DNA of 64,000 nt, taken from positions 2,401 to 66,400 of the forward strand of contig SHVS01000012.1 in NCBI GenBank assembly GCA_009694135.1, read 5' to 3'. The notes beneath the pieces are model-generated. The model was not told the DNA's origin. It did not search any database and saw nothing but the letters and a program-made list of their open reading frames with translations. Position 1 is the stretch's first letter. Each line of letters opens with the position of its first letter. The position numbers and the translations under genes were made by a program. This document shows, piece after piece, positions 267 through 26,274 of this stretch. This stretch comes from Alphaproteobacteria bacterium. GTDB lineage: Bacteria > Pseudomonadota > Alphaproteobacteria > UBA6615.

Positions 267-2276
267 ATGTCCGGTGATGGCGCTATGGAAAGCATCGGTT
301 TTTTCGTTGGCGCTCTGGTTCCGACGGCAATTTTGATGATGATATTTCATCGTCTATTGCGACCGCATTGCGCGCCATTGGCTTGCATTGTGATCGCAAA
401 CGGGTTGTCTCTATTCCTCATTTCGGTGCTTGCAGGTTTCGGACTGGCGAATGGAGATCGGCCAGATTTCGTCGGCGCATTTGCTCAAAATGTGCTTCCC
501 CAAACTGTCTGGCTCGTTGTCGGCCTCTTCCGACTCACGCGCGTAGGTCCGCCCTCACTGGCCATTTCACCTACGCCCTTGGATTCTTCGCCAAGAGAAG
601 CTTCGCCTACAGCTATCTCGTTTCCGGGTGGACCAAACATAGCGGCCGCGCCCACTATCTACGATTCGGACGGCGACGAGAAAAGTCACACGACAACCGA
701 AGCTTTGGCACCGCCAACACCCCGGCGCTTTTATAATTTTATTGCAATGCACTGGCGGGGGGAATTTTCCTTAGGCCTGTCTTACTGGGGCATTTCTTTT
801 CTCGGCGGCATCGTCGCGGCCGCGTTGGTTGCACTATTGCCTAGCGCCCTTTCAATCATGTTCAACACTGATCGCATTTACGACCCACAACAGTTGTTCT
901 GGGCGCTTTTCCTGAGCTGGTCGGTCTTGGCTTTTATCACGCTATGGCAACTCGTCGGCGTATGGCGATCAGCGACGCGTCATTTCGACCGACGGATGAA
1001 ACAGGGCAAAAGCACGGGCTGGGCTACTGCAGCGAAGTTCGCTGTTGCAATCGGTTTTCTGAGTTCTATCGGACAGTTCATAAGTACCGGCGCGCCTCAG
1101 ATTTCTGAAACTTACAACATGGCTTATCTAGGCGATCCTGACATTCCAGAATATGCGCTTCGCATAATGCGGAATGGCACTGAGATTGAGCTTACAGGAG
1201 GGTTCAAGTTTGGATTAGCCGATGACTTTGCAAAGGCTCTGAAGACTTCACCGCAGATTCGGGTGGTCCATCTAAACAGCCTTGGCGGCCGCACCGGGGA
1301 GGCTGAGAAGCTTTACTTGCTCATTCGGAAAAATGGCCTGATTACGTACGTATCCTCACGCTGCGCGTCAGTTTGCACCCTGGCATATTCGGCCAGGCGC
1401 GAGCGCTGGATTGATCGCAATGGCCGACTAGGTTTTCACGGATTAGCGTTTCCGGGCATGGATGCGGCTTTAATAGAGAAAGCCACGTTTCACTTTAAGG
1501 AACTCGTGATCGCCGCTGGGTATGACCGCTTATTTGTTGAACGAGCCTTGGCTGTCCCGAACAACGAAATCTGGACTCCTTCATTAGAAGACCTAGCCGA
1601 CAGCAGGGTCGTAACGAATTTCTCAGACGGTGGTCAATTTGCCGCGTCAGGATATGCAACCGGCATTACTTCCGATCAGATGGGCAGTGTTCTCGCCGCA
1701 GCGATACCGGCGATTGCCTCGCTGCAGAAGCGTTTTCCTCAGAACTTTCAGTTGATTGCGAGAGCCTATTATGACGGCTATGTCGCCGGACAAACGCATG
1801 AAGGTCTTTGGGCGGAACTCCGGGAGACGTTAACACCGCTGATTGCGAAACACATTGCACTCGCCGACGACGCCGTGCTTATTGAACTGGCAGGATTGAC
1901 GATTGATATGTTATTGGCACTGAATCAGCGTGACCCGAAACTTTGTTATGAATATGCAGTAGGAGGAAACAGGAATATTTCAAAGGAGTTACCGGAGGCG
2001 CTCAACCAACGCGATCTCGCGCTTGGCGGACGTGTCATCGCCACTTCTGCACCCAGACCTCCGGTAAATGAGCAGGCTACGAACCTGCTGCAAACTCGGA
2101 TCGACGCATCGCTATCGAAGCGCTTCCCACAAAACAAAATTGCACTTCTGCGGGCGAGCACCGTCAGACCGGCGCAATACAGTGACTATTGCATTTTGGT
2201 GATCTCGACGTTCCAGGAAATCATTGCGATGAAGCCCGCAGAGGCTGCGTCGCTGCTTCGAAGGTATTATTCATAA
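267..2276 (+). CDS. hypothetical polytopic membrane protein with ClpP/SppA-like (COG3904-like) domain
   Basis: 669-codon ORF in a lower-GC stretch. Hydrophobic helices are present (FFVGALVPTAILMMIF, GIVAAALVALLPSAL). The segment VHLNSLGGRTGEAEKLYLLIRKNGLITYVSSRCASVCTLAY resembles the ClpP/SppA-fold periplasmic protein family from memory. No precise family assignment is possible. Confidence 0.5.
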   Translation: MSGDGAMESIGFFVGALVPTAILMMIFHRLLRPHCAPLACIVIANGLSLFLISVLAGFGLANGDRPDFVGAFAQNVLPQTVWLVVGLFRLTRVGPPSLAISPTPLDSSPREASPTAISFPGGPNIAAAPTIYDSDGDEKSHTTTEALAPPTPRRFYNFIAMHWRGEFSLGLSYWGISFLGGIVAAALVALLPSALSIMFNTDRIYDPQQLFWALFLSWSVLAFITLWQLVGVWRSATRHFDRRMKQGKSTGWATAAKFAVAIGFLSSIGQFISTGAPQISETYNMAYLGDPDIPEYALRIMRNGTEIELTGGFKFGLADDFAKALKTSPQIRVVHLNSLGGRTGEAEKLYLLIRKNGLITYVSSRCASVCTLAYSARRERWIDRNGRLGFHGLAFPGMDAALIEKATFHFKELVIAAGYDRLFVERALAVPNNEIWTPSLEDLADSRVVTNFSDGGQFAASGYATGITSDQMGSVLAAAIPAIASLQKRFPQNFQLIARAYYDGYVAGQTHEGLWAELRETLTPLIAKHIALADDAVLIELAGLTIDMLLALNQRDPKLCYEYAVGGNRNISKELPEALNQRDLALGGRVIATSAPRPPVNEQATNLLQTRIDASLSKRFPQNKIALLRASTVRPAQYSDYCILVISTFQEIIAMKPAEAASLLRRYYS

Positions 2277-3548: not shown

Positions 3549-5351
3549 ATGCGGCACTCATCACCAATATGCCGGCGAACGCTGAAACTGGCGTTGCTTG
3601 GCGGAGCCTTGTCGCTGCTCGCGACTTGGCCTGGATACGCGGCCGACGTGACTAAGGCGCGCCTCGAGGGCGCAGCTGCCGAACCACAAAACTGGCTGCT
3701 GCCCTATGGCAACTACGAAGGCCACATGTTCTCGAGGCTCGACCAGATCAATCGCGGCAACGTCGCCAACCTCAAGGTTGCCTTCACCCTTCCGCTTGCT
3801 TCGGCGCTGACCGGCAATCCCGACCTCAACCTCATGAACCACGGCATCGCCGACGACGGTTTCCTGTACATCGATGACGGCCGCGGTGGCATCTACAAGG
3901 TCGACCTGAACTCCAACGACAAGGCACAGATCGTGTGGAAGGCGGACGCAGCGGTGTCGGCCGATGAATCGAACCGCTCGCGCGGCATCGCCGTCTGGGG
4001 CAACGCCGTGTTCCACAACCTGACCGACGGCCGCGTCGTCAAGGTCAACCGCGACACCGGCGAGATTATGTTCGACAAGCTGGTTGCGCGCACCGACCAC
4101 CCGAAAGGTTCGGGAGTTAATATCAAGGGCGAGTATTTCTCCGCGGCGCCGCTGGTCGTAAACGGCAAGATCATGGTCGCCAACAGCTACGGCGACGGCC
4201 TGACCCGCGGCTGGCTGCACGCCATGAATCCGGATACCGGCGCCGAGCTGTGGCGCACCTACATGGTGCCCGCCCCGGGCGAGCCCGGCCACGAGACCTG
4301 GAAGGACAACAACGAGGCCTGGCGTATCGGCGGCGCGGGGCTGTGGACGACCGGGACCTACGATCCGGCGTTGAACCTGACCTACTGGGGCACGGGCAAC
4401 GCGCAGCCGATGTTCGACGTGCAGTATCGGCCGGGCGACAACTTGTACTCGGCCTCGATCGTCGCGATGAACGTCGACGACGGCAAGATCAAATGGCACT
4501 TCCAGTACACGCCGAACGAGGGCTGGGACTACGACGAGAACGGCGTGCACCAGATCTACAACGTCAACGTCGGCGGCGCCCCGCGCAAGATCATCGGCCA
4601 TTGGGGCCGCAACGGGTTTTTCTATCGCCTCGACGGCGTGAACGGCGCCTTCATGGACGCGACCCAGTACGTGGCCAAGGTGACCTGGACCAAGGGCATC
4701 GACCCCAAGACCGGCAAGCCGGTGGAATACGATCCGAGCAAGGCGGTGCAGACATACATCCCGGAAACGCGCATGCTGCGCGGCGACGCTCCAGAAACCT
4801 ACTGCCCGACCATCACCGGCGGCGTGCGCTGGCAGTCGGTCGCGTTCAATCCGACCAAGAACCGTTCCTATTCGGCGGCAATCGACGGCTGCACGACGAT
4901 CCAGGTCGGCGAGTCGAAGCGCTTGGCGGGAACGGCCATGTTGGACCCGAAGGCGCCAGGCGGCATTCGTGGCCGCATCGACGCCGCGACCAAGAACCTC
5001 GGCTATACTGGCCTGGTTCGGTCGGTCGACGTGCTGACCAACAAGATGGTCGCGAGCTTCTCCTACCCCTATGAGAGCCAGTCGGGCGCATTTGCGACCG
5101 CCGGCGGTCTGATCTTCACGGCTTTCCTCGACGGCCGCGTCGTCGCGCTCGACGACGAGACGCTCAAGGAACTGTGGCACTTCAACACCGGCGTCATCAC
5201 CAAGGCGCCGCCATTCTCCTTCTCCGCGAAGGGCAAGCAGTATATCGCCATCCTTGCCGGCGGCGGGCGCAAGGGAAGCGGCTACACGGCGGCGTGGCCG
5301 GAGGCGAAGAACTGGGTCAACGGTCCGGTGGTATTCTTCTTCGCGCTTTAG
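3549..5351 (+). CDS. PQQ-dependent dehydrogenase, methanol/ethanol family (8-bladed propeller), secreted
   Basis: GGAGGA lies 4 nt before ATG 3549. Signal peptide is MRHSSPICRRTLKLALLGGALSLLATWPGYA. Family blocks include NWLLPYGNYEGHMFS, LWRTYMVPAPGEPGHETWK, WGTGNAQP and KWHFQYTPNEGWDYDENG. Confidence 0.85.
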   Translation: MRHSSPICRRTLKLALLGGALSLLATWPGYAADVTKARLEGAAAEPQNWLLPYGNYEGHMFSRLDQINRGNVANLKVAFTLPLASALTGNPDLNLMNHGIADDGFLYIDDGRGGIYKVDLNSNDKAQIVWKADAAVSADESNRSRGIAVWGNAVFHNLTDGRVVKVNRDTGEIMFDKLVARTDHPKGSGVNIKGEYFSAAPLVVNGKIMVANSYGDGLTRGWLHAMNPDTGAELWRTYMVPAPGEPGHETWKDNNEAWRIGGAGLWTTGTYDPALNLTYWGTGNAQPMFDVQYRPGDNLYSASIVAMNVDDGKIKWHFQYTPNEGWDYDENGVHQIYNVNVGGAPRKIIGHWGRNGFFYRLDGVNGAFMDATQYVAKVTWTKGIDPKTGKPVEYDPSKAVQTYIPETRMLRGDAPETYCPTITGGVRWQSVAFNPTKNRSYSAAIDGCTTIQVGESKRLAGTAMLDPKAPGGIRGRIDAATKNLGYTGLVRSVDVLTNKMVASFSYPYESQSGAFATAGGLIFTAFLDGRVVALDDETLKELWHFNTGVITKAPPFSFSAKGKQYIAILAGGGRKGSGYTAAWPEAKNWVNGPVVFFFAL

Positions 5352-5513
5352 TGCTCGACGAGAGTAAGTCACGGGCCATCGTGAGGGTGGGGTCGGATCG
5401 CAGCGCGGTCCGGCCCCTCCTCCCGCAAGAGGCCTTCGACTGGCGTGGCCCGCGCTAGGCCGGTAACGCGACGGCGGTGCAAGCTAAATGGACCTCCGAC
5501 CGGGATTATTTCA

Positions 5514-7013
5514 ATGATGCGAAATACGCGTGCCGGAACAATTGCGGTCCTTGCCGCTGTTACTCTTCTGCTATCGAACGCAGCCGTCGCGCAAGCCCCA
5601 GTGAGCGTGGCCCCTGGCGGTGCTGAAAGTCGACCGCGCCGCGATACCATCTGGGACCTGCCGCTCGGCGCGCATGCGAAGGAGTTGCGGCGCGACGTTT
5701 ATTCAGGTTTCGCCTGCGGCAGCGATGGCGGGCCGCCTGGCATTCCGCTCAAGTCCTGGGCCGAATTCGCCCGCTGTCGCGCCGAGCCGAAGACCGGTTT
5801 TCACGAAGTCTACTTCCGCTACGACGAAGAGCTTGAATATCGCAGCAAGGCGCTCGACCCAATGGGCGAGACCGGCGTGCGCCACGAGGGCACGTCCGAA
5901 TTTCAGCAACCGATCATTGTCTCCGCGCTATTCGACGATTTCGGCTTTTTGAGCGGAGTTCGCCTCGTCACCGATCCGCGAACGACGTCGGATCTGCGTG
6001 AGCGCGGCGTCCGTCTGGCGGACGCGCTGCAAAGCCGCTTCGGCTTTGCAGGTTGGGCGTGCGAGGACCTGGAACCGGCCGAGGGCGAAACGCCCTACCG
6101 CAATTCCCTGATCAAGTCGCGCTGCACCAAGGACAATCCCGCGGGCGGCGTGCGCATGGTGATCGAGCGGCACTTCTACCGCAAGAAGGGCCAGGTGATG
6201 GTTGACGCGGTCACCCGCGCTGTGACCGAGGGCGCCTTCGCCAGCGAGACTCGTTTTCATAGCATTCTGACCAAGCCGGTCCCGGATGCTGCCGCGCGCC
6301 ATGCCACTATTGCCGAGCCGACGCCCACCGCGGTCGAGCGCCTGGCGGAGCGAGTGCGAAATTGCCGTGGCTGCGATCTGCGCGGGCTCGACCTTAAATC
6401 GGCTGACCTGCGCGACGCGAAGCTCGCCGGCGCCGATCTGTCGGGTGCGATCCTGCACGCCGCCGACCTGACCGGCGCGGACCTGACTGGGGCCAATCTC
6501 GGCGGCGCCAATCTTAACCGCGCCAATCTCCGTCGCGCCCGCCTCTCGGGCGCCAACCTGAGTAGCGCGATGCTGTACGAGGCTCGGCTCGATGGCGCCG
6601 ACCTTACCGACGCGAATATGTCACAGGCCAATGCGGCGCGGGCGGAAATGACCAGCGCGGTCGCGCCGCGGCTGATCGCTTTCGACGCCGATCTGCGTTT
6701 CGCGCGCATGCTCGGCATCGATCTTTCGGGCGCGGACTTAAGCGGGTCGTGGCTCAACGACGCTCAGCTCGCGCGCTCGAACCTGGAGCGGATCAGCCTG
6801 GTCGATGCCCGCCTGTGGAGCACGTCGCTGATCGAGGTCAATCTGCGCCAGGCCAACGCGCTCCGGGCAGACCTCACCCATGCCGACCTACGCGGCGCAG
6901 ATCTATCGTCGGCGAATTTCTCTTCGGCGCGGATGTCTTTTGCGGTGGTTGCCAACATGATCACGGCAAACACGGTTTTCGAGGACGCGGAACTGCCCGC
7001 CGGCCTGCGCTAA
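5514..7013 (+). CDS. secreted pentapeptide-repeat protein with unknown ~270-aa N-terminal domain
   Basis: Signal peptide is MMRNTRAGTIAVLAAVTLLLSNAAVAQA. The C-terminal ~200 aa are uninterrupted A(D/N)LxG-type pentapeptide repeats (DLRGLDLKSADLRDAKLAGADLSGAILHAADLTGADLTGANLGGANL...). Confidence 0.8.
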   Translation: MMRNTRAGTIAVLAAVTLLLSNAAVAQAPVSVAPGGAESRPRRDTIWDLPLGAHAKELRRDVYSGFACGSDGGPPGIPLKSWAEFARCRAEPKTGFHEVYFRYDEELEYRSKALDPMGETGVRHEGTSEFQQPIIVSALFDDFGFLSGVRLVTDPRTTSDLRERGVRLADALQSRFGFAGWACEDLEPAEGETPYRNSLIKSRCTKDNPAGGVRMVIERHFYRKKGQVMVDAVTRAVTEGAFASETRFHSILTKPVPDAAARHATIAEPTPTAVERLAERVRNCRGCDLRGLDLKSADLRDAKLAGADLSGAILHAADLTGADLTGANLGGANLNRANLRRARLSGANLSSAMLYEARLDGADLTDANMSQANAARAEMTSAVAPRLIAFDADLRFARMLGIDLSGADLSGSWLNDAQLARSNLERISLVDARLWSTSLIEVNLRQANALRADLTHADLRGADLSSANFSSARMSFAVVANMITANTVFEDAELPAGLR

Positions 7014-7949: not shown

Positions 7950-8025
7950 TGGTGCCGCCTGGGTGACTCGAACACCCGACCCCCGCATTACGAATGCGAT
8001 GCTCTACCGGCTGAGCTAAGGCGGC
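7950..8025 (-). tRNA. tRNA-Thr (anticodon CGU)
   Basis: The reverse complement folds by hand into a cloverleaf. Acceptor GCCGCCT pairs with AGGCGGC, D arm is GCTC/GAGC, anticodon stem is TCGCA/TGCGG with loop TTCGTAA, and T arm is GGGTG/CACCC. CCA is encoded. Length 76 nt. Confidence 0.92.
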
Positions 8026-16345: not shown

Positions 16346-17983
16346 ATGAATCGCCCATCCAATGTCCGGCCCCTGCATCTTCGTCCGGCGGCAACGCCCA
16401 CCACGCGTGACCGCTTGCAGACGATGCCGAGCGCGAGCCCGGTTCGCTTCTACGCCGGGCTGTTGCTGACCACGGCGACGACGCTTGCGCTGCAAATCCT
16501 GTTCACGCGGATTCTGTCGCTGGTCGCCTGGTATCACCTTGCCTTCTTCGCCATCAGCATGGCGATGTTCGGCCTGACCGCCGGGGCGGTGTGGGTCTAT
16601 CGCGGCGGGAAGCGCTATTCCACGAATTCGCTGGCGCGCGATCTGCCGTATTATACTTTGCTGTTCGCGCTTTCGAGCGCATTGGCGCTGGTCGCGCTGC
16701 TGTCGCTCGCTCCGGCCGGAACCTCCACCCTGACTTCGGCCGTGATCTGGCTCGAAATGGCGCTGGCGCTGGCGACGCCGTTCTTCTTTTCCGGCATGGT
16801 GGTGAGCCTGGCGCTCACCCGCAGCCCCTATCCGGTGGGGCGCGTTTACGGCGTCGATCTGGTCGGCGCGGGCTTCGGCTGTCTTGGCGTGCTCGTCTTG
16901 TTGAATCTGACCGATGGCCCGTCCGCGGTGTTGTGGACCTCGGCGGCGGCGGCGCTGGCGGCCTATCTGTTCCTGCCGACGAAATCCGGCGCGGGCATTG
17001 CGCGCAGCGCGCTGCTGATCGCCGGCGTACTGGCGGGCGTGGCGGCGCTCAATGGTTTATCGCTGCGCGGGTTGCAGCCGATCATTGTCAAGGGCGATGT
17101 CGCCAAGCGTGGGCCAGAGCTCGACTTCGAGCATTGGAATACTTTTTCGCGCGTGGCCGGAACCCAGTCATCCGTGCATTCGCCCTTCATGTGGGGACCC
17201 TCGCCGAAAATGGACCGCGGTCTCACTTTCGAACAGCGCGGGCTCGACATCGACGGCGCGGCCTATACGGCGATGTATCGCTTCAATGGCGAGCGCGCGA
17301 GCGTCGCGTTCCTGCAAGACGATCTGACCAACCTGGTTTACGCCTTGCCCGGCCGCAAGCGTGCGGCGGTGATCGGCGTCGGCGGCGGCCGCGATGTGTT
17401 GTCGGCCTGGGCGAATGGCGCGGAATCGGTGACCGGCGTCGAGATCAATCCGGTGTTCATTCGCTTGCTGACGCGCGACCTGGCCGATTACGCCGGCCTG
17501 GCGCGCCTGCCCGGCATGCATTTCGAGGTCGACGAGGCGCGCAGCTGGTTCGCCGCCAGCCGCGAACGCTTCGACACCATCCAGATGAGCATGATCGACA
17601 CCTGGGCCGCGACCGGCGCCGGCGCCTTCACCCTGTCGGAAAACGGGTTGTACACGGTCGAAGCCTGGCGCGTGTTCCTCGACCATCTGACACCGCAGGG
17701 CGCGTTCAATGTCAGCCGCTGGTTCGCGCCGGGCGAGGTCAACGAGACCGGGCGCATGATCAGCCTGGCCATGGCCGTGCTGCTGGAAGAGGGCGCGCCA
17801 GATCCGGCGCGACACATTTTCCTCGCCTCGGCCAAACGCATCGCCACGCTGGTGCTGGCGCGCAATCCGCTGTCGCCCGAAGACCTGGATGCGCTCACCC
17901 GCAGCGCCGAGACACGCGGCTTCGATGTGCTGCTGCACCCCGACCGCGCACCATGCTTTTGCCTGTTCCCGGGCCTGCAATAA
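16346..17983 (+). pseudogene. spermidine-synthase-like membrane protein, N-terminal part (interrupted by insertion)
   Basis: About 7 N-terminal TM helices followed by a class I MTase / spermidine synthase-like fold (VIGVGGGRDV, GVEINPVF, DTIQMSMIDTW, LSENGLYTVEAW). It ends at TAA 17981-17983, exactly where the composition turns AT-rich. Confidence 0.75.
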
Positions 17984-18036
17984 CATTGATAACTTTCATA
18001 TTATTATTATAGCAAAATACTTATAAGAAGTCAAGG

Positions 18037-18063
18037 AAACAGGGCAACCAATGTGCCCTGTTT
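18037..18063 (-). terminator. hairpin terminator downstream of the cassette operon
   Basis: AAACAGGGCA-N7-TGCCCTGTTT forms a perfect 10-bp stem. On the minus strand it is followed by TTTCCTT. It lies 80 nt after the lipoprotein stop codon. Confidence 0.6.
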
Positions 18064-18143
18064 AGCGGTACCATACGAAGCAATTTTTAAAACGGTACCA
18101 TATTTTTACGCTTTAAGTGTAGTGTTAACTGTCCAAATTACTG

Positions 18144-19292
18144 TTATTGGATTGGAATTTGAATCAATGCTCCAACGTCACTGGTAACGAAACCATCTTT
18201 TTCCACAATCCAGTCGATCCATTTATTACCAGGGCGTCCAGGTTCTGTCCATGTAGGATTTGCATACAGCACTGTGCTGATGCGGGTTGTAAGATCAAAC
18301 TTTTGCACCCACATGCCTTCATAAAATACAGTACCGTTTGCCTGCCCGTCGCCAGTTCGTGTAATGTATAAAGCATTAACGGATTTAACGTACAAGAAGT
18401 CTGTGATAACACCTGCGCCTGGCACAGCGGGAATTACTATCTCGGTGGGACGATTAAACAAACTTCCGCCAAAATCATTGTTACCCGGATTAATAATAAT
18501 GCGGGTAGCATCTTGCCATTCATGACTGCCTGCCACCATGTCATATTTGCCGTCACCATTCAAGTCCAGCAATTCAACATGAAATGCTCGGCGCTGTTGC
18601 GGAATAGTTAATGCAGTGGAACGTGTAAAACGTCCAGTCCGATCGTTAATAAAAACGTCAGGTTGATCTTTATTGGTCAGAATCAAATCAGGATAACCGT
18701 CATCATTGATGTCAGCACTGGCGCCACCGTGTTGAAAACCCACTGTGTCTGACAGATAATCCATTTTGTATTTGCCCGATGGCTGGCTTAGTAATACTCG
18801 ACTGCGTTCACCGGGAAAGGGGGCGGCGTCCCAGCCATGACATGCAATAGCAAAGTCGACGACCCCGTCTTGATTATAGTCGGCCATGATGGCCTTGCGT
18901 GGATGCTGGCATCCAGGAACACTATTAGCAGAATCAAATACCGTTTGTGTGTGTGGAAGCCATTGGCCATTTACTTGCTTGTAAAAATGAACAACGGACG
19001 GCAGCGCATTTTCTACTGTGGCATTCCAAGGCCCATTTGTTAGTTTAACTAAAACATATCCCAATGCGCCGTCGGGGTATTTAAAAATCGCTCGTGCGTT
19101 TCCAATTATGGGTAGGGTCGCTGTATATGAATATGCTTGATGTCGGTTTTCATAACTCAACTGAGAAACAACTGCAGGCGGGATTGGAACTGTTGGTGGA
19201 TCAACTGGAGCAGTGCTTGCTCCGCCGCCACCACATGCAGTCAATAGTCCCAATAAAAGAACTAAAGGGAGAAGAGATTTATGTAATTGCAT
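18144..19292 (-). CDS. FG-GAP/VCBS-repeat lipoprotein
   Basis: AAGGA RBS. Lipoprotein signal MQLHKSLLPLVLLLGLLTAC followed by GGGG and a Pro/Thr linker. Three Ca-binding-type repeats: DYNQDGVVDF, DINDDGYPDL and DLNGDGKYDM. Confidence 0.8.
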   Translation of the reverse strand: MQLHKSLLPLVLLLGLLTACGGGGASTAPVDPPTVPIPPAVVSQLSYENRHQAYSYTATLPIIGNARAIFKYPDGALGYVLVKLTNGPWNATVENALPSVVHFYKQVNGQWLPHTQTVFDSANSVPGCQHPRKAIMADYNQDGVVDFAIACHGWDAAPFPGERSRVLLSQPSGKYKMDYLSDTVGFQHGGASADINDDGYPDLILTNKDQPDVFINDRTGRFTRSTALTIPQQRRAFHVELLDLNGDGKYDMVAGSHEWQDATRIIINPGNNDFGGSLFNRPTEIVIPAVPGAGVITDFLYVKSVNALYITRTGDGQANGTVFYEGMWVQKFDLTTRISTVLYANPTWTEPGRPGNKWIDWIVEKDGFVTSDVGALIQIPIQ

Positions 19293-19306
19293 AATAGATC
19301 CTTAAA

Positions 19307-19633
19307 TTAAAGAGGCATGTGGTATTGAAAGCCCTGTGCAGACACTTTCTTGAAGATACCTTCTGCGGCCCAGTCTTGTTCAAGCAAACGCAGAGTCTTA
19401 CGATCTGCAATTAGTGCTCCGTCTTGCACCTTGACGCTGCCACTCTTTTTACCGTAAGATGGCTCGTAAACAGTGCCACGCAACACCAGCTCAAGGGCTA
19501 GTTTGATTCGGTCTAAACGAATTTGCTGAGCCTGAGTATACAGTGTTTTATTTGCATGATTGCGCATACGGCGATCTTGTAATGCAAAAAACTTGTTATT
19601 AGATTCTTTAGTGTTAAGAGACAATGTCAACAT
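19307..19633 (-). CDS. hypothetical 108-aa protein (no recognisable family)
   Basis: ATG 19633 is preceded by AAAGGA. The ORF matches the AT-rich cassette composition, and its stop lies 14 nt before the lipoprotein ATG. The longer track ORF 19307-20272 is a composition chimera. Confidence 0.6.
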   Translation of the reverse strand: MLTLSLNTKESNNKFFALQDRRMRNHANKTLYTQAQQIRLDRIKLALELVLRGTVYEPSYGKKSGSVKVQDGALIADRKTLRLLEQDWAAEGIFKKVSAQGFQYHMPL

Positions 19634-19699
19634 ACTAATCCTTTTTGCTGTGTATGTATGTACAGTGTATTGCGAAATTGATAGCTTCATTCCCACAGG

Positions 19700-20167
19700 G
19701 TCTATGCGCTCTCGATCACGCTGTTCTGCCTGATCCTTTCGACCGGCTTCGGCAGCCTGTTGAGCGAACGCCTGCGGCTTGATACGCAGGGCCGCCTTAC
19801 GCTTTGGGCGCTGGCGACGACCGCGTATCTGGCGCTGTTGCCGCTGTGGCTGCCGGCGCTGACCGCCGGCTTCGACGACCAGGGCCTGATCATCCGCGCG
19901 GCGGTCGCCATTGCCGCGATCGCTCCGGCCGGGCTGTTGATGGGCTTCGGCTTTCCCACCGGCATGCGCCTGATCAACGCCCAAGACCAACGGCCGACGC
20001 CGTGGTTCTGGGGCCCAAACGGCGCCGCCGGCGTGCTCGCCTCCGGCCTTGCCGTCGCGCTGTCGATGACCTTCGGCATCGGCGTAACCTTGGTCGCCGG
20101 AGCCGCCTGCTACCTTCTGCTGATCCCGGCCGCGCGCGTGATCGGCTTCCCGACGGCCGAGGACTGA
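19700..20167 (+). pseudogene. spermidine-synthase-like membrane protein, C-terminal TM part
   Basis: Same reading frame as 16346-17983. VYALSITLFCLILSTGFGSLLSERL...GFGFPTGMRLI...PWFWGPNGAAGVLASGLAV form C-terminal TM helices typical of the long membrane-bound family members. Confidence 0.7.
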
Positions 20168-20231: not shown

Positions 20232-22169
<1,938 letters not shown>

Positions 22170-22440
22170 GACGGACTGCATGCTGGCTTGGTACAGGCCA
22201 TAGGCCGTGCCCTTGACGCTCGAAGAACCGCTACGAGCACTCATATCCGAAGCGTGCGACGCGGCATTGCCGGGCAAGCAGTACACAAGTGAAGTCAAGC
22301 GGTGGCAGAAAGATCCTGACGGGCTCTTCCGGCCTCTTGTCGCGCGGCAACGCGCGCGTTAGACACTGAAATTCAACTCGCTCTCGACCCATGACTCATG
22401 TCTTGAAACCGCCAAGGCCGTCCCAGCGCTCGGCTCACAA

Positions 22441-23541
22441 TTGGACACGATGGTCGGAACTTGGATGAGCCGTGAAAGGCTCCAATTCGACGGTATTCTT
22501 TGGTCACTACTTGCTGCGATGCCGTCGGAAGACAACCGCTTGAAGTTCGACGCGCGAAGCTTCCAGGACCAATGGAGCAAGATCGATTCACTCTTGCAAG
22601 CAACCTCGATTGAGATTGTAACCATCGCTCCGATTCCGGGACTATTCGGCAATTTTCCTATTCAGCTGGCTCCCGGTCTTGAGTTGGATTCCTTTACGAG
22701 TGACGAAGTAACGCGATGTGTAAATATGTCTCTCTTGCATTCATTCGTTCAGGGCCAAGAGCTTATTCGCGCGGAACAGGCCGTCGGAGTGAGATACAAA
22801 TTATCCGACCCTAAAGTTGCCGGAGACTCGCAGGCCGAGGTTCCTCGCGGTTGGTTTGGCCATCGCGCAACCTTCGAAAGCTTTCTCATTGTGGACGATG
22901 TGCTTGCCATGTTGAGACTATTCCAAAGTGGCACCGCGGAGTGTACAGGCTCACTGTCTTTTTTTGATCGCTGGCTGCTTCAGGGAAGCACACACACTCA
23001 CCATCGCAAGAGTCGACCACATTTGTTTGCCAGCTATCGAATAGCGAGTGACGCCACAGACACGCTCAAGCAGCTTTGGCAGTTATTGACTTCCGGCGTT
23101 CTCGAAAATCACAGCTTCATTGAAGTCGCCTTGCGTCGATTTAGTATGGCCTGGGAACGCAGCCTGATCGAAGACCGTATGATAGACCTCATGATCGCGG
23201 CGGAGGCGCTATTCCTAAGTGGGCCTGGGTCACGCAAGGATCGAGGAGAGATGCGATTTCGTCTCGCGCTTCGAGCCGCGTGTTTTGTCGAGACAGCGGG
23301 TATGAGTCGTAGAGAGACATTTGGGCTCATGCGGGATGCCTATGATGTACGAAGCAGCGTGGTTCATGGCGGTCACATGGAGGAGGTAAATATTATTAAG
23401 AAACGCTCTGTATCTGCCGACGTTTTTACTACGGCTGTTGGTGACGTAGTTCGGAGAGCCATACTAAAGGCTATTGCCACACCTGAAATCGGCCAGGATA
23501 ATTTCTGGGATGACTTAATATTTCCTTATACGATGACGTAA
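22441..23541 (+). CDS. hypothetical protein with C-terminal HEPN-like domain (Rx4H motif)
   Basis: 366-codon ORF in a ~52% G+C islet. The C-terminal helical region is DLMIAAEALFL...RFRLALRAACFV...MRDAYDVRSSVVHGG, with R-x4-H at nt 23350-23367. The start is uncertain (TTG 22441, ATG 22450 or ATG 22465). Confidence 0.55.
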   Translation: MDTMVGTWMSRERLQFDGILWSLLAAMPSEDNRLKFDARSFQDQWSKIDSLLQATSIEIVTIAPIPGLFGNFPIQLAPGLELDSFTSDEVTRCVNMSLLHSFVQGQELIRAEQAVGVRYKLSDPKVAGDSQAEVPRGWFGHRATFESFLIVDDVLAMLRLFQSGTAECTGSLSFFDRWLLQGSTHTHHRKSRPHLFASYRIASDATDTLKQLWQLLTSGVLENHSFIEVALRRFSMAWERSLIEDRMIDLMIAAEALFLSGPGSRKDRGEMRFRLALRAACFVETAGMSRRETFGLMRDAYDVRSSVVHGGHMEEVNIIKKRSVSADVFTTAVGDVVRRAILKAIATPEIGQDNFWDDLIFPYTMT

Positions 23542-23565
23542 GCGCGGCGCGAAAACGCATGCCGT

Positions 23566-24021
23566 CTAATCTCGATTGCACCAGCCCGCGCGAGCGGCGC
23601 CGAAATACGCGCGGGCAAAGCCGGTGGAGATGAGCAGATCGGCGAGGTCGGCGCCATCATTCGAGGCGACGCGGGCGCGCACGCGCTCGCCGTATTTGTC
23701 GGCGCGCACCTCGGTCAAGATCACCGGCCCGGCGCCGATCCGTTCGGTGAGGAACGCCTTCGCGTGCAGAGCCTGCGCGCGCTCGGTCGGGCATTTGCCA
23801 TGCAGCTCGGGCGCGTCCACGCCTTCGAGCCGCACCAGCGTCGTGACCTCCAGCCCCAGCCAGATGCGCGCCCTGACCTCGATCGTGTCGCCATCGACGA
23901 CGCGCAAGACCTGCGCCGGAATCGGCCCCGGCACGGGCTCCTCCCCCGCGCGCGCGGGCGCGATGATCAGCGCCAGGATCAGCGCGGCGATGAAGCGGAA
24001 GCGGTGCGTCGGATACGACAT
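23566..24021 (-). CDS. secreted thermonuclease (staphylococcal nuclease-like) family protein
   Basis: Signal peptide is followed by VVDGDTIEV...VRLEGVDAPE and later DKYGERV, the SNase-fold motifs. Confidence 0.8.
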   Translation of the reverse strand: MSYPTHRFRFIAALILALIIAPARAGEEPVPGPIPAQVLRVVDGDTIEVRARIWLGLEVTTLVRLEGVDAPELHGKCPTERAQALHAKAFLTERIGAGPVILTEVRADKYGERVRARVASNDGADLADLLISTGFARAYFGAARAGWCNRD

Positions 24022-24129: not shown

Positions 24130-26274
24130 CTAGGACGGCTTTCGGCCGCGCGGGCGGATCCGCCCCAGCTCCGCCGCGAGGCGCGCGAGACGCCCGTCGG
24201 CGAGCAGCTCGGCGACGCCGAGCGGCAGCCGGCGGCGCCAATTGGGATGCTCGTCCACCGTGCCGGGCAAATTCGCCTGCTCCTCGATCCCGAGCACATC
24301 CTCGACCTGCACCAGGCACAGCCGCGCGGGTGTGCGCGCGAGATAGGCGTGCACGGCGAGCGACAGGGCATCGAAGTCGAGCTGCTCGGGCGACGTGCCC
24401 TGCGGCAACAGCCCGGCCTCGATCAGCGCGTTCACCAAACGCCAGCGGTCGTCGGCGCGCGCGCGTTCCATCTGCTGGCGTAGTTCATTCGTCGGGAACA
24501 GGCCGAGCTCGGCGCGTAGCGCAATATCGTGCCCGGTCCAAAATCCGCGCAGAGTCGACAAATCATGCGTCGCCACCACGGCCGCCGCCGGACGCGTGTA
24601 GTGTTCCGGCGCTTTGAAACGCCCGTCGCCCGCGCGCTCGAAATACAGCACGCGATAGGACAGAAGCCCGGCGGCTTGCAGCTTTTCGGGCAAGCCGGGC
24701 GGGACCGTGCCCAGATCCTCCGCCACCACCAGGCATTTCGCCCGCTGGCTTTCCAGCGCGATGATGCCGAGCAAATCGTCGAGCGGCAGGGCCACATAAC
24801 CGCCGGCGTTCGCCTTCTCTCCCCGCGGCACCCAGAATTGCCGATTGAGGCCGAGCGCATGATCGATGCGCAGCGCGCCGGCGTGGCGCATGGTGGCGCG
24901 CAACACCTCGGCGAAGCCGCGATAGCCGTCGGCGGCGAGAGCGCGCGGATTCCACGGCGGGATGCCCCAATCCTGACCCAAGGGCCCGAGCGCATCCGGC
25001 GGCGCGCCCATGCTCACGCCAGACGCGAGCGTATCCTGAAAGCTCCATGCCTCGGCCCCGTCCCCCACCGCGCCGACGGCGAGATCGCGATACAGCCCGA
25101 TACGCATGCCCCCGGTGCGCGCCCGCTCCGCCGCCAACCCCAATTGCGTGTCGGCCAGATATTGCACATAGGCGAAGAACCCGACCCGCTTCGCCGCTTT
25201 GCGCGCGAAGGCAGCAACGGCGGGCGCCTCCGGGCGGCGATACGCCGCCGGCCATTCGCGCCACCAGCCATGGCCCTCGGCCTGCATCGCCTCGGCCAAC
25301 GCCTCGAAGATCGCGTGCCGGCGCAGCGTTTCGCTTTGTTTGCCGAGCCAGGCGCGGAACGGACCTGGGTCTTTCCGCTGGCGGAAGGCGGCGTACAGCG
25401 CCTCGAATAACGCGCGCTTCAGCGCGGCAACGGCGGGATAATCGATCAGCGCGCCCGCACGCGCCGCCGCGATTTGCGCCTGGAACTCCGGCGAAGATGT
25501 GAGCGCGCGCGCTTCCCCCGCCAATTCCCGTGGTGGATCGACGAACAGCCAATTGAGCGCGAGCCGACTCGACGCGGCATAGGGGCTGAACTTCTCCGAC
25601 CGGTGCGGAAATAGCGCCGTGAGCGGGCTGAGGCCCAGCACATCGGCCCCGTTGCGCCCCAGGCCTTCCGCCAAAGCGCCCACCTCCGAATATCCGCCGA
25701 CACCCCAATCGCGCGCCGAGCGCAACCCGTAAACTTGCGCGCTCAGGCCCCAGACGCGCCCATCGCCCGCCAGCGCCGGAGGCTGATACGCCATGCGCGG
25801 GGCGACAATCAGATGCATCGCCGCCCCGCCGTCGGGCGTCTCGAGCAGCAGCCGGTGATAGCCTTCGAGCGGCATCAGCGGCAGGGTGAAATCCCGCCGC
25901 TCGCGCAAGTCGCCGTCGATGGTCTGCGCCGCGACCAGCGGCAGATCCTGCGGTTTGAAACGGCCACGCGCGCGCGTGCCATCCTCGCATTCCAGCCGCC
26001 AGAGAAGGCTTTGCACATCCGGCGCCAGGATCAACGGCAGGGTGATCGCCTCGCCCAGGCGAACAACGCGCACGCTCGGCAAAGCCTGCCGCCAGGGCTC
26101 TTCTACGGCGGCGGCCAAGCTCTCCGCCAGCGCCGCATCGCTCTCGGCCGGATAGCCGAGCGCGGCGAGCAGCGCGCGCCGGGTCTGATCCGGCACGCGG
26201 CGCAATTGGCCGAGCCCATCCCGGTAATCGGGCTCGATGCCCGCCAGGGCGCACAGGCGATCCAGCGCGCTCAT
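24130..26274 (-). CDS. malQ: 4-alpha-glucanotransferase (amylomaltase)
   Basis: 714 aa with IGLYRDLAVG, GAPPDALGPLGQDWGIPPW, LRIDHALGL and VVATHDLSTLRGFW. Confidence 0.9.
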   Translation of the reverse strand: MSALDRLCALAGIEPDYRDGLGQLRRVPDQTRRALLAALGYPAESDAALAESLAAAVEEPWRQALPSVRVVRLGEAITLPLILAPDVQSLLWRLECEDGTRARGRFKPQDLPLVAAQTIDGDLRERRDFTLPLMPLEGYHRLLLETPDGGAAMHLIVAPRMAYQPPALAGDGRVWGLSAQVYGLRSARDWGVGGYSEVGALAEGLGRNGADVLGLSPLTALFPHRSEKFSPYAASSRLALNWLFVDPPRELAGEARALTSSPEFQAQIAAARAGALIDYPAVAALKRALFEALYAAFRQRKDPGPFRAWLGKQSETLRRHAIFEALAEAMQAEGHGWWREWPAAYRRPEAPAVAAFARKAAKRVGFFAYVQYLADTQLGLAAERARTGGMRIGLYRDLAVGAVGDGAEAWSFQDTLASGVSMGAPPDALGPLGQDWGIPPWNPRALAADGYRGFAEVLRATMRHAGALRIDHALGLNRQFWVPRGEKANAGGYVALPLDDLLGIIALESQRAKCLVVAEDLGTVPPGLPEKLQAAGLLSYRVLYFERAGDGRFKAPEHYTRPAAAVVATHDLSTLRGFWTGHDIALRAELGLFPTNELRQQMERARADDRWRLVNALIEAGLLPQGTSPEQLDFDALSLAVHAYLARTPARLCLVQVEDVLGIEEQANLPGTVDEHPNWRRRLPLGVAELLADGRLARLAAELGRIRPRGRKPS

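Follow-up and report, generated by a model that had tools for sequence, protein, structure and literature searches.

The stretch of 64,000 nucleotides analysed here (the window; contig SHVS01000012.1 of assembly GCA_009694135.1, positions 2,401 to 66,400, from an alphaproteobacterium of the UBA6615 lineage) contains an islet of low G+C content of ~1.4 kb (22170..23565), which sits between the convergent 3' ends of an acetyl-CoA synthetase gene (acs) and a gene for an SNase-family nuclease. The islet raises the question of what kind of gene it carries, how this gene came to lie there and whether it can still act. An original prediction, made from the letters of the window, described a protein of 366 amino acids (aa) with an unrecognisable N-terminal domain and a C-terminal HEPN-like R-x4-H motif, and proposed it as a candidate ribonuclease effector. 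We arrive at a foreign gene for a HEPN sensor-effector protein that was recently inactivated; taken as a whole, this is the explanation that accounts best for the data and one that we consider probable.

The large open reading frame (ORF) of the islet is not a complete gene. In tblastn searches against the window, the N-termini of homologous proteins aligned upstream of the ORF, in its own frame and straight through a TAG codon, with E-values of 8e-25 to 2e-20. Read from GTG 22207 (or TTG 22213) to the TAA at 23539-23541, this frame comprises 444 codons on the plus strand, and the closest relatives measure 439-447 aa. Tblastn together with a listing of the codons placed the premature in-frame TAG at codon 52 of 444 (22360..22362, plus strand). 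A 5' fragment of 51 codons, beginning at one of the two start codons named above, ends at this stop (22207..22362). It is followed on the same strand by an in-frame remnant without indels, which reaches from the stop to the next possible start and can still be aligned with homologues (22363..22440), and by the 366-aa ORF itself (22441..23541), the 3' 83% of the gene. This ORF begins with TTG 22441 and has further ATG codons at 22450 and 22465, the last of which was chosen by gene callers and yields a product of 358 aa (P0001). In the alignment the ORF starts at the 'QLDxLVGT' block that is conserved among the homologues and lacks about 80-100 of their N-terminal residues. The family motif W-x-[KR]-x-x-D-G-x-F-R is encoded at 22303-22332, where the window reads W-Q-K-D-P-D-G-L-F-R. 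A nonsense codon cuts this gene of ~444 codons, and the 366-aa ORF is what survives of its 3' part.

The original prediction was thus correct in that the ORF at 22441-23541 is real, that the peptides it quoted are found there and that the R-x4-H motif lies exactly at nucleotides (nt) 23350-23367. It erred in treating the ORF as a whole protein with an N-terminal domain of ~230 aa, since the upstream part in the same frame carries the missing residues. The gene contains neither frameshifts nor indels and keeps every invariant residue of the family, and the disruption therefore looks recent. Because the nonsense codon strips the conserved N-terminal segment from any product, the window copy is most likely inactive, and the locus most likely represents a defence-type gene that was recently inactivated and no longer functions. 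With the premature stop overlooked, the proposal of a candidate effector at this site probably does not hold for the window copy, which is unlikely to yield an active effector.

This argument depends on the stop being genuine. The TAG is only one base away from several sense codons (TTG, TCG, CAG, AAG, GAG, TGG, TAC/TAT) and the gene is otherwise free of decay, as would be expected if the codon were an assembly or sequencing artefact, or were read through, and a full-length protein of 444 aa were made. However, the same TAG is present in a separately assembled Logan contig (L001), which matches the window at 100% identity over 4,682 nt, and two more contigs, both from one ENA assembly, yield the same 358-aa product call. 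The malQ products of the latter two differ in length (710 and 714 aa), so that the truncated HEPN-like ORF must be common to two strain variants or more. The adjacent nuclease gene also ends in TAG (23566-23568, minus strand). As TAG terminates this neighbouring gene, it is a genuine stop in the host organism, and programmed recoding and a reassignment of TAG were both rejected on this ground. The sole tRNA gene of the window encodes a tRNA-Thr (CGT) (7950-8025, minus strand), adjoins none of the low-G+C islets and leaves the window without a suppressor tRNA. Taken together, an artefact or a readthrough appears extremely unlikely.

A second possibility is that the truncated product of 358-366 aa is made by re-initiation at TTG 22441, ATG 22450 or ATG 22465 and is functional, as a short or a two-piece form of the protein. 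The downstream ORF is intact with all its invariant residues, folds by itself with good confidence in the model and occurs with identical sequence on several contigs, and four entries of the protein collection (P0134, P0211, P0213 and P0158) start at about the same point. Yet one of these, P0134 (locus L090), is itself disrupted: in-frame stops lie upstream of its 'MDTLVGS', the N-terminal consensus is still legible there and only 178 nt of contig precede the called start. With such upstream stops and so near to the contig end, P0134 was rejected as a natural short isoform, and none of the short entries is proven to be natural. Furthermore, a short form would lose the conserved W..DG.FR segment, and the sequence before the three candidate starts, read directly, contains no convincing Shine-Dalgarno motif; the starts lie 78-102 nt downstream of the TAG. 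In ApeA, an anti-phage HEPN protein discussed below, the N-terminal domain helps to shape both the pocket and the oligomer interface, and by analogy a truncation should disable regulation. We therefore regard a functional short form as rather improbable and treat the window copy as a broken gene in the following.

The islet is foreign to its surroundings. Its G+C content is 0.52-0.54 over 22250-23500 compared to ~0.65 in the flanks, and the G+C content at third codon positions (GC3) of the gene is 0.55, as opposed to 0.86 in acs, 0.88 in the nuclease gene, 0.82 in malQ and 0.78 in glgX. The left flank is formed by the native acs gene (20232..22169, plus strand; Pfam ACAS_N/AMP-binding), the right flank by the native gene for a secreted nuclease of the SNase family (23566..24021, minus strand; Pfam PF00565, E 1.3e-8), which is convergent with acs. 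Only 37 nt separate the acs stop from the first possible start of the disrupted gene, and 24 nt separate the stop of the latter from that of the nuclease gene. A search for relatives of the nuclease in 185,579 reference genomes yielded best matches of only 44-57% identity, in Rhodospirillales, Zavarzinia, Bauldia and Kiloniellales, and this genome set contained no close relative of the host. The convergent pairing of acs and nuclease gene is nevertheless conserved in these distant Alphaproteobacteria, and the acs genes that adjoin the SNase gene in four of them (L002, L004, L005 and L008) are 72-79% identical to that of the window. In two cases the junction is empty, with acs and SNase gene abutting at a distance of ~12 nt in Zavarzinia (L005) and ~90 nt in a Rhodospirillales metagenome-assembled genome (MAG; L002), and none of the 80 loci compared contains a relative of the HEPN-like gene. 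As acs and nuclease gene abut in distant relatives, the HEPN-like gene is an insertion. The suggestion of a foreign islet in the original prediction is borne out by the low G+C content and GC3 together with the empty junctions, and its view of the nuclease as a native neighbour by this comparison of synteny, in which the nuclease gene is paired with acs across distant Alphaproteobacteria.

Two further junctions hold unrelated cargo. In Bauldia (L004, 2200-3500), the space between acs and SNase gene is occupied by a POPDC/cNMP-binding protein and a secreted ORF of 148 aa, and in a Kiloniellales MAG (L008, 6450-8320) by a cytochrome c and a Pyridox_ox_2 (PNPOx-like) protein. Since both carry genes that are unrelated to the window insertion, the convergent acs/SNase junction seems, from these sequence comparisons, to be a recurrent insertion spot. 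A search around the islet for direct or inverted flanking repeats, att/attC sites, promoters, terminators and Rfam families revealed nothing credible.

The nature of the encoded protein was assessed from conservation and from structure prediction. An AlphaFold2 model of the ORF, based on an alignment of 78 sequences, reached a mean predicted local distance difference test (pLDDT) of 91 and a predicted TM-score (pTM) of 0.90. It consists of an alpha/beta domain of unmatched fold (ORF residues 1-195; 22441..23025, plus strand; delimited by DSSP of the model) and a helical C-terminal domain (residues 198-366; 23032..23541, plus strand), which was also modelled separately with a pLDDT of 90.6. The alpha/beta region has no match in Pfam and no significant Foldseek match in the PDB or BFVD, in agreement with the earlier remark that the N-terminal part is not recognisable. 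In the C-terminal domain, the core helices were assigned to residues 243-258 (H1), 265-282 (H2), 290-308 (H3) and 326-345 (H4).

HEPN domains are described as a four-helix up-down core with an Rx4-6H motif that closes helix 3 and extends into the H3-H4 loop, with a polar residue (usually N, D or H) after the arginine and an acidic residue of helix 2 in the form of an Ex3[K/R] motif (Anantharaman et al. 2013, PMC3710099). The motif R304-S-S-V-V-H309 (23350..23367, plus strand) closes the predicted helix 290-308, with H309 and G310 as the first residues beyond it and the next long helix at 326-345, where the model has a pLDDT of ~96. In alignments of 78, 81 and 33 sequences, R304 and H309 never vary, which is far above what chance would give for an R-x4-H pattern, and the conservation of S305 and G310 amounts to at least 90% (78-81 sequences), S305 supplying the polar residue after the catalytic arginine. 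E270-M-R-F-R274 (23248..23262, plus strand) lies within the predicted helix 265-282 and represents the acidic Ex3[K/R] motif; E270 never varies, and the conservation of R274 is at least 90%. A Foldseek search of the PDB with the domain alone ranked the HEPN protein 2hsb first (E 0.57, probability 0.66, TM 0.36/0.45), with nothing at E<=0.001, and the list also contains the sacsin HEPN domain and HEPN-MNT toxins, which are likewise non-significant. On the basis of the conserved positions and the model, the C-terminal ~170 aa are best interpreted as a HEPN domain whose catalytic R-x4-H motif is intact, and the gene family probably encodes a HEPN ribonuclease (RNase). The original prediction of a helical C-terminal region with R-x4-H placed as in HEPN proteins is thereby strengthened by the invariant arginine and histidine, their position where helix 3 ends and the Ex3R motif in the preceding helix.

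The closest known counterpart of this domain is found in ApeA. A profile of the C-terminal domain, searched with hmmsearch against 177,635 distinct PDB sequences, gave one chain at E<=10, namely Ec3ApeA (9hxj), with a weak E-value of 0.38. The match falls into two collinear pieces, in which 'DLMIAAEALFL' is paired with 'NLWIALESLVP' and 'YDVRSaIVHGG' with 'YRTRNNIVHSG'. A profile of the whole family matched only ATP synthase b among the PDB sequences, and these hits were discarded as spurious. ApeA is a one-protein abortive-infection system with an anticodon nuclease of the HEPN type, turned on by 5'-phosphorylated deoxydinucleotides (Gao et al. 2020; Juozapaitis et al. 2026 preprint, 10.64898/2026.01.26.701840). 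The protein has ~580 aa, is largely helical with an N, a Mid and an insertion-rich HEPN domain, forms decameric or dodecameric rings and cleaves tRNAs in the anticodon loop, and its N-terminal domain contributes to the activating pocket as well as to the oligomer interface.

For a comparison at the profile level, genuine ApeA genes were recovered from prophage contigs of IMG/VR, where a 63-aa fragment of Ec3ApeA found matches, while it had none in the protein collection, the plasmids or the phage genomes. In total, 351 relatives were gathered and a 52-sequence ApeA alignment was built. Aligned with hhalign against the resulting profile, the Rx4H block scored 30.5 (P 0.0026), and the H1 block reached P 0.0027 when the full-length family alignment was used and P 0.034 (score 22.9) when the domain-only alignment was used, both blocks standing in the same order in the two families. 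In 200 column shuffles the best score had a mean of 15.1, a standard deviation of 2.6 and a maximum of 24.2, and none of the 200 reached 30.5. An earlier form of the ApeA alignment with 6 sequences paired the right motifs, at scores that were not significant. As the observed score exceeds all 200 shuffles, the catalytic core resembles that of ApeA above chance, and the family is plausibly, by its sequence blocks, a relative of ApeA at the level of the HEPN domain. The likeness comprises the catalytic block Y-x-x-R-[S/N]-x-I-V-H-[G/S]-G, the H1 helix [D/N]-L-x-I-A-x-E-[A/S]-L and the organisation as a single gene that acts without a partner, as the members of the window family are solitary in eight homologue loci and in the window itself.

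By the criteria applied, however, the family is not ApeA. Its members have 440-480 aa as opposed to ~580, their N-terminal region is alpha/beta in the model where ApeA has helical N and Mid domains, and their HEPN domain is compact, with a much shorter spacing from H1 to Rx4H, whereas that of ApeA carries large insertions. The comparison also sets a protein characterised by experiment beside a family known from sequence and model, of which the copy in the window has a stop within its frame. The PADLOC ApeA model PDLC02157 has no match at E<=10 in the window protein or in 10 relatives, whereas it recognises three genuine ApeA proteins with E-values of 1e-9 to 1e-13. The original guess of an 'Apea-like' protein therefore stands in part: ApeA is the sole PDB sequence touched by the domain profile and some database labels agree, but the PADLOC ApeA model fails. 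The Ec3-type ApeA genes themselves (584 aa; L091-L103, e.g. L091 2041-3795), which lie in prophage or viral contigs, are mostly annotated as 'hypothetical protein' at NCBI and are detected by the PADLOC ApeA model alone; L095 is a truncated call of 372 aa.

The family to which the disrupted gene belongs is large. The protein collection contains 102 homologues, the best of which is 41% identical to the window protein, and nearly all have 440-480 aa. An exhaustive profile search retrieved 14,378 cluster representatives at E<=1e-3 and, with the stricter threshold of E<=1e-30, still 1,746, and the family is spread over Proteobacteria, Actinobacteria and Acidobacteria. Some relatives are already named 'HEPN domain-containing protein' (NCBI) or 'Apea-like HEPN' (JGI, UniRef), names that could not be reproduced with Pfam, NCBIfam or PADLOC. 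The HEPN or Apea-like domain call thus exists as a database label on some members, and the gene of the window is a broken member of an unstudied HEPN family. Candidates for HEPN proteins in defence are in general frequent. Among the library scans, PHROG 28161, whose function is unassigned, matched residues 268-316 over H2-H3 with an E-value of 1e-7, and there was one faint match to a reverse transcriptase (RT)-associated HEPN model (E 0.002). One entry, P0140 (861 aa), has a penicillin-amidase-like C-terminal extension of ~500 aa, either fused or read through; it starts at the truncated position and is probably a chimera of gene calling or assembly.

Other HEPN systems resemble the family in part. 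The architecture 'ApeA-NTD1 + HEPN(Apea)', which is described as abundant and poorly conserved with a mostly beta N-terminal domain of ~300 aa (e.g. Cyanothece PCC7424_5050; Anantharaman et al. 2013, PMC3710099), shares with it a non-all-helical N-terminal region of ~290 aa followed by a C-terminal Apea-like HEPN domain. It differs in that the window model is mixed alpha/beta, a comparison made by description only. The two may be the same family. DARNA/PD-T7-3 and PrrC/RloC likewise couple a non-catalytic sensor domain to a dimeric HEPN RNase in abortive infection, but in DARNA the HEPN domain is N-terminal and combined with a helical C-terminal domain that binds single-stranded DNA, and PrrC/RloC are ABC ATPase fusions. 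Neither the window protein nor the family gave a sequence or profile match to DARNA or PrrC/RloC. HepT/MntA, minimal HEPN proteins (2hsb, 7bxo, 8xeh, 5yep/7ae8) and HepS have the compact four-helix core, and such chains rank in the fold search with the domain. They are, however, stand-alone proteins of ~130 aa (HepS <250 aa), HepT with an adjacent MNT antitoxin, whereas the window protein would have ~445 aa. A HEPN-MNT toxin-antitoxin pair was rejected, as no MNT or other partner gene occurs in the window or in the homologue loci.

The surroundings of the relatives bear on what the family may do. In eight of eight loci examined, the homologous gene is solitary, with neither a conserved partner nor an MNT antitoxin, and in seven of seven loci measured its G+C content is below that of its flanks. 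The neighbours differ: transposases and ParA in L082, the toxin modules HigB and HicA in L088, transposases, DUF4238 and CHAT-TPR in L086 and plain housekeeping genes in L083 and L087. In Amycolatopsis sp. CA-126428 (L085, 9528-11129), a PARIS-like AriAB fusion of ATPase and nuclease (PADLOC E 1.6e-53) lies directly downstream of the family member, and a pair of HTH_31/DUF5753 and DUF6879 genes is found close by. As these genes adjoin it or lie nearby, the surroundings suggest a defence island.

The window copy is not the only one with a damaged 5' end. L089 carries a 1,186-nt insertion sequence (IS)-like element (4869-6054) with a 9-bp target duplication at about codons 64-66, which is absent from the otherwise 99% identical L082, and the stops in L090 were described above. 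Such a recurrent disruption of the 5' end fits a gene that is costly to its host and takes part in conflicts. The IS-like element itself encodes an ORF of 257 aa (5231-6004) without a Pfam match and may be an undescribed small insertion sequence.

A number of observations weigh against the reading as a foreign, recently inactivated HEPN sensor-effector gene. With regard to the domain, Pfam, PADLOC and NCBIfam give the window protein no match at E<=10, and, apart from the faint RT-associated HEPN match, the three libraries are equally silent on more than 20 relatives, even at E<=10 (Pfam covered the window protein plus 22 relatives at E<=1-10, PADLOC the window protein plus 10 relatives at E<=10). 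The searches with Pfam HEPN-clan and PADLOC models, which the original prediction had named as its check, were thus negative throughout. The residue after the catalytic arginine is serine and not the usual asparagine, aspartate or histidine, the fold matches to solved HEPN structures given above are not statistically significant, whole-protein Foldseek searches of the PDB and BFVD found nothing below E 0.03, all of it noise, and hhalign assigns the match with ApeA a probability of only 11%, across 20-31 columns, with nothing aligned outside the core. Concerning the defence role, a recognised defence system occurs in only 1 of ~7 sampled neighbourhoods, no family relative was found in the viral contigs of IMG/VR, and the pattern of 5' disruptions is subject to ascertainment bias, since a long ORF with a high score survives only where the lesion lies close to the 5' end. 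Lastly, the contigs with the TAG may stem from one sample, and the mutation could be strain-specific or polymorphic.

The absent HEPN models, the non-significant Foldseek E-values and the low hhalign probability could be taken to mean that the C-terminal domain is an unrelated helical bundle, its R-x4-H motif a family-specific feature of a non-nuclease and the HEPN assignment a false analogy. This would require four independent hallmarks to coincide, namely the invariant arginine and histidine, the polar residue after the arginine, the position at the end of H3 and the Ex3R motif in H2. In addition, the top fold match and the sole PDB sequence match are both HEPN proteins, and the shuffle control excludes an artefact of composition. 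The silence of Pfam carries little weight: Pfam gave no match (E<=0.01) for genuine Ec3-type ApeA either, and since it misses this validated protein, its silence is uninformative for HEPN domains of the ApeA type. A non-HEPN bundle is therefore very unlikely in our view.

The mixed neighbourhoods leave a minor but real chance that the protein is a HEPN RNase of another kind, either a selfish addiction-type toxin or a mobile RNase in RNA processing or stress. Most sampled neighbourhoods are without recognised defence genes, some copies adjoin toxin-antitoxin modules or housekeeping genes, and HEPN domains are also known from toxin-antitoxin systems and RNA processing (Anantharaman et al. 2013, PMC3710099). 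Neither a conserved antitoxin partner nor an MNT gene, though, is adjacent in any locus. The patchy distribution, the foreign composition and the recurrent inactivation fit conflict genes and not housekeeping genes, and the one-chain arrangement of a large N-terminal region and a C-terminal HEPN domain matches known immune effectors. Judged by architecture and context, and by analogy with these effectors, a role in defence or as a toxin is what the family suggests.

From these considerations we propose the following course of events for the locus. A single foreign gene was inserted between the convergent 3' ends of the native acs and SNase-type nuclease genes. Its intact product would be a chain of ~444 aa, composed of an N-terminal segment of ~85 aa with the W..DG.FR motif, the unmatched alpha/beta domain and the C-terminal HEPN RNase domain. 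HEPN enzymes are dimeric, metal-independent RNases. By analogy with ApeA, DARNA, PrrC/RloC and HepS, the N-terminal ~290 aa would most likely serve as a sensor or regulatory module that holds the HEPN dimer inactive. A cue linked to infection would then release the RNase, which would cleave RNA, probably tRNA, and bring the cell to arrest in the manner of abortive infection. In the window, the nonsense mutation at codon 52 makes the full-length protein impossible and leaves an ORF of 358-366 aa that has neither the N-terminal segment nor an evident ribosome-binding site.

Two other stretches of the window are also low in G+C content. A second and stronger islet (17750-19760) has 0.41-0.48 compared to 0.65, and encodes a lipoprotein-like protein with FG-GAP/VCBS repeats (minus strand, 18144-19292; Pfam FG-GAP_3 at E 2.5e-17; GC3 0.37) as well as an ORF of 108 aa. 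It is flanked by a multi-pass membrane ORF of 545 aa (16346-17983) and a membrane ORF of 135 aa (19760-20167), neither of which has a Pfam match, and it may have split one membrane-protein gene in two. A third stretch (1-2300; G+C 0.51-0.55) contains an ORF of 669 aa (267-2276, plus strand) with hydrophobic first ~260 residues and no Pfam match. The malQ gene lies at 24130-26274.

For the host genome, the finding is of little consequence, as it concerns a small foreign insertion with a gene that is most likely dead. It serves as a warning that an islet ORF, however long and clean, can be no more than the tail end of a gene that has been disrupted. The family is of wider interest: it is large and broad, is seen by neither PADLOC nor Pfam, and combines an ApeA-like core with an unrelated N-terminal domain that has no structural match. 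For tests of phage defence, and in the search for a new activation signal, an intact member would be a sensible choice. Tentatively, and at somewhat short of an even chance, the family may represent a widespread one-protein immune sensor-effector distinct from ApeA, in which a compact ApeA-like HEPN domain is joined to an alpha/beta sensor for a different infection signal. If this is true, the repeated knock-outs of the 5' end, by a nonsense codon here, an insertion sequence in L089 and stops in L090, would reflect a real cost of autoimmunity.

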